Source: Promethearchaeia archaeon
Lineage (GTDB): Archaea > Asgardarchaeota > Lokiarchaeia > Sigyniarchaeales > SOKP01
Direction of reading: 5' to 3'
NCBI GenBank assembly: GCA_029856145.1
Contig: JAHQWK010000028.1
Location: 15,316-79,315, forward strand
DNA length: 64,000 nucleotides
Part shown: positions 58,614 to 64,000 of the stretch, piece by piece
Position numbering within the stretch: position 1 is the stretch's first letter
How the letters are laid out: the number at the start of each line of letters is the position of its first letter
Notes under the pieces: generated by a model
The model's input: the letters and a program-made list of their open reading frames with translations, nothing else
Databases searched by the model: none
What the model was told of the DNA's origin: nothing
Made by a program: the position numbers and the translations under genes

Positions 58614-59582
58614 ATTCACGAATTTAAAACAGATTTGCAGGATTCTGGTTCCGGGATAGATATTCCCATAGATAAAGTGGGTATTGTAGAATTAGAAAAA
58701 AAAGTTGAAATAGTTCAAGAGAATAAAAAATATTCATTTTATCCTAAAATTTCAGCATTAATTAATCTTCCCGCTGAGCAACGTGGTATCCATATGTCCC
58801 GAACTTCAGAGACTATAGAGGAAGTCATTAATGAAGTAATTTTCAAACCAACTCCTACTATCGAGCTTGTTGGTGATAGAATAGTTCGAAAACTGTTAGA
58901 ACGGCACCCATACACTTCAAAAGCAGAAGTTAAGTTAGAAGGAAAGATTGTTGTTCAAGTCAGAGAAAATAATACAAGAAATATCCAAAAATCTTATGAA
59001 ATTAGCTCTTATGTTAAAGCTAACAGAATATCATCTACCAAAATTGAATATTTATATTTTATTGGGGCAAGCGCTGTCGGAATGACGGTATGCCCATGTG
59101 CAAAGGAAATGTCGCAAGAATATGCGTCTGAAATCATCAAAACCAGAAAAGATATTAATGTTTCAGAAGAGGATCTTAAAAAATTAATCAATATTCTCCC
59201 ATTTTCATCACATAATCAAAGGTCAATTGGCACAATTATTGTGCAAATTAAGGATTTATCCAACCATAAAATTGATGTGTTAGATATCATTGATGTAATA
59301 GAAGAATCAATGAGTGGTAAAATACAATCTGTGCTAAAACGACCAGAAGAAGCCGAATTAGTAAGAAGTGCTCACTTAAAACCCCTATTTTCTGAAGATG
59401 TCATAAGAGAAATGGCAAAAAACTTCATTTTAAGGGACTTTCCAAATATAGAAGATGATTCTAAAATAAAATTTAGTGTTGAAAGCTACGAATCTATACA
59501 CGTCCACAACGTTTTTGCGTCGTTAAAATCTACAATTGGGGATTTAAAGAAAAGATTGAAAATAAAAAATAAAACTACTTAG
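58614..59582 (+). CDS. mptA: GTP cyclohydrolase MptA (FolE2 family); probable ATT start
   Basis: DLQ, DKVGI, RGIHMSR, GMTVCPCA, SHNQR, LKRPEE, FSEDVIR, ESIHVHN. Confidence 0.92.
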   Translation: MHEFKTDLQDSGSGIDIPIDKVGIVELEKKVEIVQENKKYSFYPKISALINLPAEQRGIHMSRTSETIEEVINEVIFKPTPTIELVGDRIVRKLLERHPYTSKAEVKLEGKIVVQVRENNTRNIQKSYEISSYVKANRISSTKIEYLYFIGASAVGMTVCPCAKEMSQEYASEIIKTRKDINVSEEDLKKLINILPFSSHNQRSIGTIIVQIKDLSNHKIDVLDIIDVIEESMSGKIQSVLKRPEEAELVRSAHLKPLFSEDVIREMAKNFILRDFPNIEDDSKIKFSVESYESIHVHNVFASLKSTIGDLKKRLKIKNKTT

Positions 59583-59646: not shown

Positions 59647-60813
59647 TTATCTTTTCTTTAGAAAGTTTTTATAAATTACTATATAGTTTTTTACACTAAT
59701 AACCTTAGGATTTCTTTTGTAACTTAATGGAATAGGCGCATTGCATCGAGAGCAAAGACCAGAGGTTCTAAGCCAATCTCTAAACTCATCTGCATGGGCA
59801 GGATATCTACAATTTGGACACAATATTATTCCTCTACCATTGTCTTTAGGATATTCTGGTAATCTAAAACAAAAAATACATTTAAAATCCTCTATTGACA
59901 AATTTCCCGCTCTTGGTCTATATAATTTAAAATTTACTTGTTTTATTGTATTTTGACTCCTTCTAATTGGTTTTCCTGATGTACTTCTGCTTGTAGATCG
60001 AGTACTTGTTTTAACTCTAGAACTTCTAGATTGAGCGTGTCCGGTAGGTGTTCTTCTGGATGATTGAGAAACAGTTCTTGAAGTACGAGTCACAGTTCTA
60101 TTTGATGGTGTTGGAGAAGTTCTAGTTCGAGAAGTTTGACTCTGTGTTGCAGGAGATGAGCGTCTTGTTGGTGATGCTAATTGATTTAATCTTTTTGTAC
60201 GTTGCGTTATATAGTCTCTGGTTAATTGAGGTAATTGCACTCTAGTTCCAAAAAATCCGAGAACAATTAATATGAGAATTGTACTAATAAGGAATATTAA
60301 AAGATTAAGATCTATTAGAAAGTGGAGAGGTACTAATACAGATTCATAGAAATCAACAAATGAATAAAAACTAATCCAATAAATAATTATAAAAAGAACA
60401 ATTGAAATACTAAAAAAATAACCAAAAGTACGTGCTTTTACTGACTTCGTCCCAAAATAAATTACATTATATTTCTTAAAACAGCGATACAATGAAATTG
60501 AACCATATAATACGTAGGGAAATCCGAATAGAATACTCCACCAGCTTAAATATAAACTTGTTCCTTCTAGAAGATTTTCCCCTAATAAACCTGTAAAATT
60601 ACCCCAAATTGAATAAAATATCCCTATGAAAACAGGACCGATTGTGAAAAAAGCAGTATTATGAGGAGAATTAAATTCGCGATATTTTTTGATATTTTTT
60701 ATAACTTTAAAAGAATAAATTAACCAGATTCCGATTAATAACCAACTTACAAATACATTAAAGGAATTTAGAATAGCGCCATGTATAATACCGATTACCA
60801 AAAATATTACCAA
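59647..60813 (-). CDS. Multi-pass membrane protein with Ser/Arg/Thr-rich linker and C-terminal RING-like domain (putative E3 ligase)
   Basis: About 6 TM; CIFC-x16-CPNC-x4-H-x2-E-x3-W-x6-CSRC; last gene of the ubiquitin cluster; start may lie up to 36 nt upstream. Confidence 0.75.
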   Translation of the reverse strand: MVIFLVIGIIHGAILNSFNVFVSWLLIGIWLIYSFKVIKNIKKYREFNSPHNTAFFTIGPVFIGIFYSIWGNFTGLLGENLLEGTSLYLSWWSILFGFPYVLYGSISLYRCFKKYNVIYFGTKSVKARTFGYFFSISIVLFIIIYWISFYSFVDFYESVLVPLHFLIDLNLLIFLISTILILIVLGFFGTRVQLPQLTRDYITQRTKRLNQLASPTRRSSPATQSQTSRTRTSPTPSNRTVTRTSRTVSQSSRRTPTGHAQSRSSRVKTSTRSTSRSTSGKPIRRSQNTIKQVNFKLYRPRAGNLSIEDFKCIFCFRLPEYPKDNGRGIILCPNCRYPAHADEFRDWLRTSGLCSRCNAPIPLSYKRNPKVISVKNYIVIYKNFLKKR

Positions 60814-60871
60814 TGTAATTGCTATATATTTAATTTTAGTCTTCGTTATTAATCACCCTAGTTCTTATACT

Positions 60872-61684
60872 TCAATCTTCATCATATTCAAGGTATACCG
60901 CTTTCCCCTCAATTATAGGATTTATAAATTTTAAAATTTCTGGTAGCATTCGTACATCTAAGGATCCTTTAATTCCATATACCAATGGATACCATGTTTT
61001 AAATTTAAAATCTGCCTTATATATCTCAAATCCAGTAGATTTACCATCAATTTGATAAGGATCTATAACTAGCGCAACAGCTTTATCCCATAGTTTTTGA
61101 TATCTTGCTTGAGTTCCCATATCTTCATTAGACATGAAACAACCATATGATGGATGTGAATGATACCATCCACATATAAACAATTTCTGTCTCTTAATAT
61201 CTTTAAAAGCTCTCACATAATTTCTATAATCTTTAATCTCTGCATAAACTGCTGTACCGTGTCCCATTGGATAAGAATCTTCAATATGGATTATATTATT
61301 CCCATCTATTTTTCCTGCAAGAAGCCCAATAACCTCCACCCAACGTTCTCTTGGAATTTTAGAATTAGCATATTTGAGTGCATGACTCGCTATTTTAAGA
61401 ATTGCTTTTACTGAAATATAAATCTCCTTTTGTATTTCCTCTTTTTTTTGAGTTTTGACTTTTTTATTTTCTACAATATTAGCTGTAGGTATCTTTGTAA
61501 GTTTAATAATTGGTTTGGCAGAAGATTTTTGTATAAGCATTGAAGAAATTTCTTCAGTCAATTCATCTTCTTCTAACTGAAGTTCTTCACAAATTTCATC
61601 TATTAATTCTTGTTTTATTTTTTCTTTTATCTTCCTTTTAATTACATCCTTAATTGAATAATTCGCTAGGTCTTTATCTTCCAT
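60872..61684 (-). CDS. JAMM/MPN+ metallo-isopeptidase (Rpn11-like)
   Basis: EVIGLL, GWYHSHPSYGCFMSNED, ALVIDP. Confidence 0.92.
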   Translation of the reverse strand: MEDKDLANYSIKDVIKRKIKEKIKQELIDEICEELQLEEDELTEEISSMLIQKSSAKPIIKLTKIPTANIVENKKVKTQKKEEIQKEIYISVKAILKIASHALKYANSKIPRERWVEVIGLLAGKIDGNNIIHIEDSYPMGHGTAVYAEIKDYRNYVRAFKDIKRQKLFICGWYHSHPSYGCFMSNEDMGTQARYQKLWDKAVALVIDPYQIDGKSTGFEIYKADFKFKTWYPLVYGIKGSLDVRMLPEILKFINPIIEGKAVYLEYDED

Positions 61685-61690
61685 TAAAAA

Positions 61691-62218
61691 TCACCATTTT
61701 TTATTTGCGTACTTTTTAACAAGATTCTTTACTTTTTTCTCGAAAAATTTTTGATTTTTCATCATTTCTATTGCTGCTTTTTTATTAAAAACATCTGTTG
61801 GATTAACATATTTACCACGTGTGTTTAACATAGCAATTATCGCTTGAACAACGGTAACCGCAGTTTTTGAGGGGCTCCATCCACCTTTTTTCCCAACTAA
61901 AGAGGGATCTACTAAAGCTAGACAAATATTTCTTTGTCCTTTATATTCAGATGGTTTTGGCCAAAAATTTGGATGCCAAATTGGAGTATGCAATCTTACA
62001 AAAGGAGGTTGTTTAGGATATTGAGCAGGGAATTTCATTTCTAACCTAAAAAGACCACCTGCATAAACAGTACCCTTAGGTCCTTTAATGGAGATTGCTA
62101 AATGATCAATACTCTTCCTTTTAGGATTAAATGGTTTTAATTGAACAATACTACCTTCTTTAAGCATTTTTTTTAATCCCGCAAAATCTCGGGAAATACG
62201 ACTACTTCTTATACTCAT
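61691..62218 (-). CDS. Ubiquitin-conjugating enzyme E2
   Basis: IKGPKGTVYAGGLF, FPAQYPKQPP, IWHPNF...NICL, WSP. Confidence 0.94.
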   Translation of the reverse strand: MSIRSSRISRDFAGLKKMLKEGSIVQLKPFNPKRKSIDHLAISIKGPKGTVYAGGLFRLEMKFPAQYPKQPPFVRLHTPIWHPNFWPKPSEYKGQRNICLALVDPSLVGKKGGWSPSKTAVTVVQAIIAMLNTRGKYVNPTDVFNKKAAIEMMKNQKFFEKKVKNLVKKYANKKW

Positions 62219-62298
62219 TTTTTCAACCCTTTTTATTTTTTTTAATTTAATATTGAAATTATTTCTTTAAATATTTGTTTTTTTCTTATAATTTTAAT

Positions 62299-63558
62299 TT
62301 AAAACCTTTTTTGATTCGAAATTTGTTTTAATTTTAAGGTTACAAAAATTTCTTCACCTTTGAATCCTGCAGCTGTCATAAACTCGTAATTTCTTAATCT
62401 ATTTTCACTAGGATTCTTTTCTAAATCAACTATCGTAACATCATTGAAATCTAATAAGGTTAGAATTGGCTCAGACTCTGGATCCAATTTAAATCCATTT
62501 TTCTTTAATATTTTAATAATGTTTACACAAGGTGATTGGGTTCTCAATTTTATAGTTACTCGGCGAACTTTTTTACCACATTGAGAACATTCTGGGTTTC
62601 TTGTTTTTTCAATATGATAAAATTTCATTGTAATTGCATTAAAGATTACATATGTTCTAATAGGTTCGCCTAATCCCTTATGACCCTTATTTAAGTGAAG
62701 GATTTTTATTACCTCATGTGATTGTAAAGCAGAAATAACTGCATTTATAGTTATAATACCCGGATCGTGTCTATCGATGATTTTCACAATATCATCTTTT
62801 GTATATTCAGGTAAGAAATTGTGTTTGTTTACTAATTCATTTGCAACCTTTTGAATGAATTTAATATCATTTACATTTTTTGGATTCGGATCTCTATCAA
62901 ATTTTTCTTTAAATGCCATATCTCCTTTAAAAAGGCAATGAATCCTTTTTCGAGGGACGCCAACCACTGTACAAGCAGCCATCTCATCATTCTCTCCTAC
63001 AGGCAATGGATTACATTCATAACAAGCATTTTTATAAGGAAATATTGTGTATACATGACCATAATAACCAGATACTCCTCCATCTACTAATGGTTTTTTA
63101 AACCTTATACATTGTGCATTTAAATTTAGACGTGCATTCATCGAATCAAGACCTCCAACAATAACATCAGCAGCTAGATAAAGTGCTGGATTCAATCGTT
63201 CTAAAGAAGTATGATATCCGTTTACAATAATATTAGGATTAATTTCTTTTAGTTTCCTTGCTGCAACAACAGCCTTAGGCTCCCCTATCTTCGCTCCTGT
63301 AAAAAGAACTTGACGATTCAAATTTGAATGTTCAATGATATCTAAATCAATAAGATCTAATTGACCAACTCCAAGCATTGCTAAGTTTTTAGCTATTTCA
63401 CAACCTAAACCTCCAATACCAACTATTAGCACTCTTGAGTTCTTCACTAATTTCTGAGACCAACCTTCCAGACGAAACTGACGATCATACAGGTCTCTCT
63501 CCTCCGTTGATAATTCTTTTGCAAAAAAGTCTGAATCCTTATCCAATCTTATCACCAT
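62299..63558 (-). CDS. Ubiquitin-activating enzyme E1-like (ThiF domain plus catalytic Cys domain)
   Basis: YDRQ, VGIGGLGCE, SNLNRQ, ACYEC, AACTVVGVP (catalytic Cys), CSQC. Confidence 0.93.
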   Translation of the reverse strand: MVIRLDKDSDFFAKELSTEERDLYDRQFRLEGWSQKLVKNSRVLIVGIGGLGCEIAKNLAMLGVGQLDLIDLDIIEHSNLNRQVLFTGAKIGEPKAVVAARKLKEINPNIIVNGYHTSLERLNPALYLAADVIVGGLDSMNARLNLNAQCIRFKKPLVDGGVSGYYGHVYTIFPYKNACYECNPLPVGENDEMAACTVVGVPRKRIHCLFKGDMAFKEKFDRDPNPKNVNDIKFIQKVANELVNKHNFLPEYTKDDIVKIIDRHDPGIITINAVISALQSHEVIKILHLNKGHKGLGEPIRTYVIFNAITMKFYHIEKTRNPECSQCGKKVRRVTIKLRTQSPCVNIIKILKKNGFKLDPESEPILTLLDFNDVTIVDLEKNPSENRLRNYEFMTAAGFKGEEIFVTLKLKQISNQKRF

Positions 63559-63638
63559 TAATATTTACAAAAAATAATAAAAAAAATTGAAGGGCATAAC
63601 GCCCTTATATTATAAATTATGAAGAAAGTTTTATAAGT

Positions 63639-63971
63639 TTACCCCGCTGTACTCGCAGGGATTAATAGAATATCATCGCCATCGTTTACATCATAGTCTC
63701 TTAATGAGCTATTTTCATCCATTGTAACGCCGCCAGATGATAAATGAAAATCATTAGGATCAAGACCATATAAATTTCCTAATGTTTCCTTAATATCTCT
63801 TACGCGATTACTGTCGTTCACAGTTAATTTTTCTTTCTTTTCACCAGGACCAATTGTTGACATGAAGTATAATGTTAATTTCTTTCCTGCTGAAGGGGTT
63901 TTAGACGCGGGAGTTTTAGATTTTACTGGTTCTTCTCCACCCAAATTTTCATCAAATTCATCAAAACTCAT
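63639..63971 (-). CDS. Ubiquitin-like modifier (beta-grasp) with disordered N-tail and C-terminal AG
   Basis: LTVNDSNRVRDIKE...LSSGGVTMDENSSLRDYDVNDGDDILLIPASTAG; first gene of the E1-E2-JAMM-RING cluster. Confidence 0.88.
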   Translation of the reverse strand: MSFDEFDENLGGEEPVKSKTPASKTPSAGKKLTLYFMSTIGPGEKKEKLTVNDSNRVRDIKETLGNLYGLDPNDFHLSSGGVTMDENSSLRDYDVNDGDDILLIPASTAG

Positions 63972-64000
63972 TCATATCACTTCCAAATTTTTTATTAATT

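Follow-up and report, generated by a model that had tools for sequence, protein, structure and literature searches.

The 64,000-nt window analysed here (G+C ∼30%) contains, between positions 59647 and 63971, a compact set of genes of the ubiquitin-conjugation type: a ubiquitin-like modifier (Ubl), an activating enzyme (E1), a conjugating enzyme (E2), a JAMM metalloprotease and a membrane protein that is a candidate ligase (E3). The list of open reading frames shows five successive frames of 110, 419, 175, 270 and 388 residues in this order, all on the minus strand and separated by 80, 80, 6 and 58 nt, as had been described in an earlier reading of the DNA made without database searches (hereafter the sequence-only reading). 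The genes occupy positions 63639–63971 (Ubl), 62299–63558 (E1), 61691–62218 (E2), 60872–61684 (JAMM) and 59647–60813 (fifth gene). The next gene downstream (58635–59582) lies on the plus strand and is convergent to the cassette, so the cluster ends with the fifth gene. On the opposite side the contig stops 29 nt upstream of the Ubl start, its end coinciding with window position 64000; the window therefore includes neither the promoter nor those upstream genes that relatives conserve. According to the same list, the genes around the cassette are housekeeping cofactor genes. The five-gene ubiquitin-type cassette is real, intact and conserved across the phylum.

The E1 matches Pfam ThiF with an E-value of 9.5e-61. 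Orthologous loci were fetched by a search with this protein, nearly all of them labelled Promethearchaeota or Promethearchaeia (Lokiarchaeia-type Asgard archaea), and the invariance of motifs was judged in 68–74 aligned orthologs. Every catalytic motif that the sequence-only reading had named in the E1, the E2 and the JAMM protein is present and invariant in this set. In the E1, the invariant motifs are G47-x-G-G-x-G52, N79-L-N-R-Q83, D138 and C196, the last within A-A-C-T-x4-P, and the zinc pairs C179-x2-C182 and C324-x2-C327 are invariant as well. To place the protein among UBA1, UBA3, UBA5 and MoeB, we used PDB sequence scores, alignment coverage and a fold search. The best PDB sequence matches were UBA1, SAE2 and UBA3 (1e-36 to 1e-38), and UBA5 followed far behind (2e-15); the alignment to UBA3 extends over residues 35–335, that to MoeB over residues 15–201 only. 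An AlphaFold model based on a 21-sequence alignment (predicted local distance difference test score, pLDDT, of 75) retrieved UBA3 first in Foldseek (E = 1.6e-24 over ∼420–450 alignment columns), with SAE2 and UBA1 next. Residues 332–411 form a confidently modelled, β-grasp-like β-α-β unit, which is likely to be the E2-recruiting ubiquitin-fold domain (UFD). The E1 thus combines an adenylation domain and a distinct domain bearing the catalytic Cys with, as modelled, a UFD. It resembles UBA3 and UBA2/SAE2 in its full-length match to UBA3, which comprises the adenylation domain, the C-T-x4-P Cys motif, the two CxxC pairs and the C-terminal β-grasp, and differs from them in that the identity is only ∼25% and the cluster contains no NAE1/SAE1-like partner gene. 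Since no partner subunit is encoded, the E1 is probably a homodimer.

The E2 matches Pfam UQ_con (E = 1.2e-25). Its H82-P-N84 motif and C99 are invariant, and the corresponding PDB matches are Ubc15, UBE2R, UBE2T, UBE2L3, Ubc13 and Ubc9 at 1e-11 to 1e-15. The JAMM/MPN+ protein matches Pfam JAB (E = 1.2e-17); behind a charged, poorly conserved N-terminal stretch of ∼85 residues it carries the motif E117, H175-x-H177-x7-S185-x2-D188, which is conserved in the orthologs. Its best PDB matches are Rpn11 (9e-17), the 'RPN11-like protein' chain of 6fjv (2e-16), which we take to be CsRpn11 of Caldiarchaeum, and CSN5.

The Ubl scores 28.2 bits against Pfam ubiquitin, the cut-off being 25.4 (E = 1.6e-6), and has weak matches to ubiquitin, NEDD8 and Hub1 among PDB sequences. 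It consists of an acidic, Lys/Pro-rich N-terminal tail of ∼35 residues, a β-grasp core and the C-terminus L-L-I-P-A-S-T-A-G, with the stop codon immediately after Gly110. The PASTAG end is invariant across 72 Ubl orthologs. A stop codon follows the Gly at once in 50 of the 72; the other 22 (∼30%) append one to four variable residues, such as Y-F, R-L-I or K. The motif L-L-I-P-x-S-T-A-G is also kept in other families and in distant Asgard classes, with or without short extensions. The terminal Gly is accordingly invariant and either exposed or exposable; the C-terminal motif is S-T-A-G rather than di-Gly in all Ubl orthologs, those of the distant classes included. A single terminal Gly suffices for the conjugation of UFM1, ATG8 and ATG12, so the missing di-Gly does not exclude conjugation. 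A conserved tail followed by variable, dispensable residues reads as the signature of a precursor that is matured at the Gly, and this pattern speaks for Gly110 as the reactive end and for recognition of Ala-Gly, not Gly-Gly, by the E1. The pro-ubiquitin of Caldiarchaeum is cut at its Gly by the Rpn11 of that organism (PMC5654768). At the other end of the modifier, within the disordered N-terminal tail (residues 1–35, positions 63867–63971), the acidic stretch is followed by S-K-T-P-x2-3-K-T-P. This motif is kept across Asgard classes and may offer a lysine for chain formation or a site for Pro-directed phosphorylation.

The tail also invites comparison with UFM1, which in its mature form likewise ends in a single Gly after a non-Gly residue and has a Pro six residues upstream. 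The idea of a UFM1-like tail, raised before, finds no support in the enzymes, and on these grounds we rejected a UFM1-type system. The E1 has a Cys domain and a UFD and matches UBA1, UBA2 and UBA3 far better than UBA5 (E-values given above), the E2 contains HPN and matches canonical UBCs, and the candidate E3 is of the RING type.

The adenylation domain of the E1 bears on a further explanation, in which the Ubl and the E1 form a sulfur-carrier pair of the MoaD/ThiS/Urm1/SAMP type that serves cofactor or tRNA thiolation and not protein tagging. NCBIfam models for MoeB, ThiF and UbaA do match this domain below threshold, and cofactor biosynthesis genes lie downstream of the cassette. The best of these matches, however, reach only 117–149 bits against cut-offs of 266–450 and are confined to residues 14–209, whereas the protein as a whole has a UBA3-like catalytic-Cys domain and a UFD and has no rhodanese domain. 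In addition, the modifier is a ubiquitin-family protein with an Ala-Gly end, its gene lies in tight linkage with those of a canonical E2, a RING-like protein and a JAMM protease, and a separate MoeB-like gene of 237 residues is present elsewhere in the genome. We rejected a sulfur-carrier function on the domain architecture and regard it as very improbable.

The product of the fifth gene is the least familiar component of the cassette. Nothing significant was found for it in Pfam or NCBIfam, and its database copies are all annotated 'hypothetical protein'. Hydropathy indicates about six hydrophobic segments in residues 1–190 (60244–60813, minus strand). The charges of the loops alternate +5, −2, +6, −2 and then +25, a pattern that would place the C-terminal part, including the zinc finger described below, in the cytoplasm. 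For the membrane domain (residues 1–200) neither a usable relative in the protein atlas nor a Pfam match was obtained. It is followed by a low-complexity linker (residues ∼191–300; 59914–60243) of ∼100 basic, Ser/Thr/Arg-rich residues that are poorly conserved in sequence; residues 196–295 comprise 20 Thr, 20 Ser, 18 Arg and 9 Gln, and only 4 Lys. The start of the gene is ambiguous. In 35 of 67 E3 orthologs the first in-frame start is an ATG ∼11 codons upstream of the position that corresponds to TTG 60813, and it opens a basic M-x-K-x-K segment. In the corresponding stretch of the window (60811–60852) the equivalent codon is ACG and TTG 60813 is the first canonical start, so translation may begin either at this TTG or at a non-canonical codon near 60849.

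The C-terminal finger (59743–59880) has the sequence pattern C312-x2-C315-x16-C332-P-x-C335-x4-H340-x2-E343-F-x2-W347-x6-C354-S-R-C357, after which helices extend to residue 388. Across 31 diverse sequences, with identities as low as 49%, its seven Cys/His residues do not vary, nor do E343, F344 and W347. The same holds for the features expected to contact an E2, namely the hydrophobic residue after the first Cys (C-I-F-C) and W347. An AlphaFold model of residues 294–388 reached a pLDDT of 87.5. A Foldseek search of the PDB and an independent VIA-align search against representatives returned RING or U-box domains throughout the matches listed (Z 5.0–7.8), and the top 50 structural matches are all RING or U-box E3 domains. 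A search of 1.8 billion representatives with the finger profile found only 121 proteins; the distant ones among them carry Pfam zf-RING_2 on the aligned segment, some above and some just below the cut-off. In RING-H2 fingers, ligands 5 and 6 sit seven and four residues before the Trp. The positions of H340 and E343 in the present finger are likewise seven and four residues before W347. On the strength of the fold matches, the zf-RING_2 relatives and these positions, we interpret the finger as a variant RING whose sixth ligand position is occupied by Glu; the distant relative P0222 has a Cys there in one of its repeats.

As a separate observation, the best PDB sequence matches of the finger profile, which are non-significant, are the C-terminal zinc fingers of IFT144/WDR19 (E = 0.04–0.7). 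The two share the pattern C-P-x-C-[KR]-[FY]-P-A...F...C-x-x-C, and WDR19 and GATOR2 RINGs also occur among the Foldseek matches of the finger. These similarities hint at a link between the finger and the RING-like fingers of proto-coatomer proteins.

To follow the cassette through the phylum, the five proteins were searched by tblastn against 79 Promethearchaeota (Lokiarchaeia) loci. The order Ubl-E1-E2-JAMM-TM-RING (TM, transmembrane) was found in essentially every one of the 79 with enough flank, which bears out the synteny across Lokiarchaeia that the sequence-only reading had put forward as a check. Eight loci that represent other families of the order show the same arrangement (E1 ∼60%, E3 30–37% identical). 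A further 13 loci from other Asgard classes contain the cassette, with E1 proteins that are 41–47% identical in most cases and E3 proteins that are ∼25–30% identical. In some loci of these other classes, E2-JAMM-E3 and Ubl-E1 form two blocks separated by a few kb, and even then the E3 gene remains the tightest partner of E2-JAMM. One distant member of the E3 family is named from Kariarchaeaceae, which we take to be a family of Heimdallarchaeia. In an even draw of the phylum, 140 of 301 genomes encode the membrane protein, with a distribution that follows families: 58 of 68, 26 of 28 and 18 of 21 genomes in some, 0 of 76 elsewhere. Five genomes from families without the membrane protein contained no full-length ortholog of the cassette E1 either. 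Loss of linkage in most complete genomes is excluded for those examined. The cassette is near single-copy per genome and appears to be inherited vertically with a fixed gene order. Together with the intact catalytic motifs, this linkage, which extends from the genus level to other Asgard classes, supports the earlier notion of a self-contained pathway.

The distribution also speaks to whether the genes could form an anti-virus defence module related to bacterial Bil or to CBASS Cap2/Cap3 (E1-E2-JAB). The PADLOC models for E1-E2 (Cap2) match the E1 adenylation domain at ∼1e-17, and there is a weak match to NCBIfam 6A-MBL cap2_3. This similarity covers only the generic ThiF part, and the Ubl, the E2, the JAMM protease and the membrane protein have no PADLOC match. 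A fixed order and apparently vertical inheritance in a phylum-level sample, a copy number close to one and housekeeping neighbours are also at odds with such a module, and we rejected a role in defence as very improbable.

The 80-nt spacer between the Ubl and E1 genes contains a terminator- or attenuator-like element (63569–63606, minus strand). Read from the sequence, it consists of the stem AAGGGC, a 5-nt loop and the complementary GCCCTT, followed by runs of eight and six T, and the E1 ATG follows ∼10 nt after its end. Of 71 orthologous spacers, 58 have a perfect hairpin that contains GC and precedes at least six T; several of the remaining ones have one stem mismatch or only the T-runs. 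Oligo-T tracts terminate archaeal transcription. The conserved combination of hairpin and oligo-T therefore points to attenuation after the modifier gene or to a separate transcript for the enzymes, and suggests higher transcript levels for the modifier than for the enzymes. The term operon, used in the sequence-only reading, is qualified by the terminator-like element between Ubl and E1; that the genes form an operon is likely.

We put the probability at roughly 85% that the region is a eukaryote-type Ubl conjugation cassette of a Lokiarchaeial (Promethearchaeota) archaeon that works as follows. The Ubl of the window would be made with its reactive Gly110 already exposed, and in about a third of the orthologs the JAMM protease would trim the extension of one to four residues. 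The UBA3-like E1 would adenylate Gly110 and take over the Ubl as a thioester on Cys196, and its UFD would recruit the E2, to whose Cys99 the Ubl would then be transferred. The cytoplasmic finger of the six-TM protein would bind the Ubl-loaded E2 by way of Trp347 and the hydrophobic residue that follows C312, and would promote transfer of the Ubl to lysines, either on proteins in or near the membrane or on the E3 itself. The Rpn11-like JAMM protease would also remove the tag. What the analysis establishes is the set of genes, their intact motifs, the fold assignments and the linkage throughout the phylum; the activities involved, that is, thioester relay, isopeptide formation and ligation, are those we infer from homology.

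Several features weigh against this mechanism. The Ubl has neither the di-Gly nor the Arg residues of ubiquitin's tail. Relative to Ubc15, the E2 has a 7-residue insertion between HPN and the catalytic Cys, close to the active site and invariant in the orthologs. The hairpin with its T-run may indicate that the Ubl gene is transcribed as a unit of its own, apart from the enzyme genes. The remaining points concern the finger. The earlier RING call is upheld by the fold search and by transitive homology, but eight conserved Cys/His ligands were not found: seven are conserved, with the invariant Glu343 in the sixth place. The spacing between ligands 4 and 5 is 4 instead of the usual 2–3, and no Pfam RING model matches the protein. 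The fold-search scores are middling (Z < 8; best Foldseek E = 2.6e-3) and lie in a range that is also reached by common small folds, and matches of the finger profile to RING sequences in the PDB are non-significant (E = 0.04–0.5).

These properties of the finger would also fit the main rival explanation, a cascade that is real but in which the membrane protein is not the E3. It could instead be a substrate, a membrane receptor or anchor for the E2 or the Ubl, or an unrelated zinc-binding membrane protein that travels with the cassette, and ligation would then be E3-independent or proceed through another RING protein. A precedent for the former exists in Caldiarchaeum, where E1 and E2 auto-modify without an E3 (PMC5654768). 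Set against this are the uniformity of the top 50 structural matches, the invariance of the E2-contact features, the zf-RING_2 domains of the profile relatives and the tight partnership of the gene with E2-JAMM even in split clusters. In view of these four points we consider it unlikely that the membrane protein has a role other than that of the E3, and we retain it as the candidate ligase of the cassette.

The closest characterised relative of the cassette is the operon of Caldiarchaeum subterraneum, whose ubiquitin, E1-like protein, E2-like protein and small protein with a RING finger, together with an adjacent Rpn11 homologue, have been reconstituted in vitro (PMC5654768; PMC6043591). Both pair a modifier of the ubiquitin family with an E1 that has a catalytic-Cys domain and a UBC E2 that shows HPN and Cys, and both include a RING-type protein as well as a JAMM protease, which in the present cassette scores as well against the 6fjv chain as against yeast Rpn11. 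They also share a modifier precursor with a short C-terminal extension, here found in many orthologs. They differ in the modifier, which in Caldiarchaeum ends in Gly-Gly and a 9-residue propeptide and here ends in Ala-Gly and 0–4 residues; in the E3, which is a small soluble RING-H2 protein there and a six-TM protein with a C4-H-E-C2 finger here; and in the protease gene, which is divergent from the operon in Caldiarchaeum and co-oriented between E2 and E3 here.

Within the same phylum, an E1/E2/RING E3 cascade of Helarchaeia has been reconstituted on UEV-Vps23 (bioRxiv 10.1101/2023.07.25.550441). It follows the same eukaryote-like E1/E2/RING logic; its pro-ubiquitin ends in Gly-Gly followed by S-P-K-N, and its E3 is a soluble RING protein with a UEV-binding N-loop. 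Hatano et al. 2022 (PMC9192718) describe the ubiquitin genes of Lokiarchaeota as a region separate from the ESCRT genes, and this 'Ub genomic region' probably includes the present cluster. The E3 catalogue of that study was built on an InterPro entry that is no RING entry (PMC9192718). Neither an Ala-Gly tail nor a membrane-embedded E3 is described in the available parts of these two papers, and no description of either was found in the literature searched, although the supplement of Spang et al. 2015 may list the genes. Within that literature, both features appear to be undescribed.

The architecture of the candidate E3 recalls Hrd1/gp78, Doa10/MARCH and plant ATL ligases, in which an N-terminal multi-pass domain is likewise combined with a cytoplasmic RING-type finger that has an E2-contact Trp. 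In contrast to these proteins, it has Glu at position 6; no homology between the membrane domains was detected, and the Hrd1 RING ranks only 11 among the RING matches. The likeness to Hrd1-type ligases of endoplasmic-reticulum-associated degradation (ERAD) is architectural only, and nothing ties the candidate E3 to ERAD.

Because the E1, the E2 and the JAMM protease are of the same eukaryote-like type as in the reconstituted Caldiarchaeum and Helarchaeia systems, the cassette represents a variation on a known cascade, not a new kind of system. The sequence-only reading was correct in calling both modifier and E3 atypical, the former for its Ala-Gly end and the latter as a polytopic protein of the membrane, in place of a small soluble RING. 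Its further proposal of a distinct Ubl system gains from the S-T-A-G end, the polytopic E3 and a co-resident GG cluster, and loses from the familiar type of the three enzymes.

The co-resident sets were found in the remainder of the assembly, which contains two further E1/E2 sets on contigs C32 and C31. The first (C32, 38500–45000) comprises a JAMM protein of 164 residues, a short ThiF-type E1 of 295 residues and an E2-like protein with HPN of 187 residues. The other strand encodes a 300-residue multi-pass membrane protein with a C-terminal Cys-rich finger and an 88-residue protein that has no Pfam match and ends in V-I-G-G followed by F-L-K-E, which makes it a candidate pro-Ubl of the GG type. 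The second (C31, 16500–25500) comprises a UQ_con E2 of 173 residues and a 530-residue E1 paralogue with an A-A-C-T-type Cys motif; this paralogue has a long charged insertion in its adenylation domain and adjoins an 825-residue coiled-coil/TPR-like protein. Coexistence with at least one candidate system of the GG type supports, in a limited sense, the view that the Ala-Gly cassette is a separate Ubl pathway, distinct from the GG-tailed one. Every Pfam-ubiquitin match in the genome is a member of the Ala-Gly family. A solo third copy of the Ubl on contig C26 (60430–60798; 93% DNA identity) likewise ends in PASTAG and adjoins a nitroreductase-like gene in an otherwise unrelated context.

A second, truncated copy of the cassette (N-terminal part of JAMM, E2, E1 and Ubl) is located on contig C9 (3–2462) and is 88% identical in DNA to window positions 61500–64000. 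It is 98.7% identical to a contig of another metagenome-assembled genome (isolate YT1_053), whereas no fetched locus exceeds 91% identity to the window copy; the contamination estimate of the assembly is 5.4%. A paralogue was therefore rejected, and the contig C9 copy more likely stems from a co-binned second population.

Beyond the contig end of the window, accessory genes are present ∼2 kb upstream of the Ubl in most of the surveyed loci and also on contig C9. They encode an ArsR-type winged-helix protein of 225 residues, a 264-residue membrane protein with a C-terminal ubiquitin-like domain that has no terminal Gly, and a second Ubl of 137 residues with a long acidic N-terminal tail and the end P-A-S-I-A-G.

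Taken further, the cassette may represent an ancestral, Asgard-wide and pre-eukaryotic system for the tagging of membrane proteins, in which an S-T-A-G paralogue of ubiquitin is attached by a polytopic RING writer and removed by an Rpn11-like eraser in the service of quality control or sorting, separately from the GG system, and in which the finger is related to those of proto-coatomer proteins. In the last part of this proposal, the pattern C-P-x-C-[KR]-[YF]-P-A-H...W...C-x2-C could be related to the degenerate C-terminal fingers of IFT144/WDR19. We offer this combined reading as a speculation, and doubt that all of its parts will hold together.

Models of eukaryogenesis assign a central place to the eukaryote-like ubiquitylation of Asgard archaea, and to our knowledge the only ligases characterised in these systems so far are soluble RING proteins, and the only modifiers have Gly-Gly ends. 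The cassette adds a membrane-embedded ligase candidate whose association with the E1, the E2, the protease and the modifier is conserved in Lokiarchaeia and in other classes of the phylum. The small size and intactness of all its parts, and the availability of Lokiarchaeia in culture, make the system open to direct tests. If it is active, ubiquitin-type tagging at membranes, the logic that underlies ERAD, endocytic sorting and ESCRT cargo selection, would predate eukaryotes and be present in their prokaryotic relatives, and several orthogonal Ubl systems with different tails would already have coexisted there.

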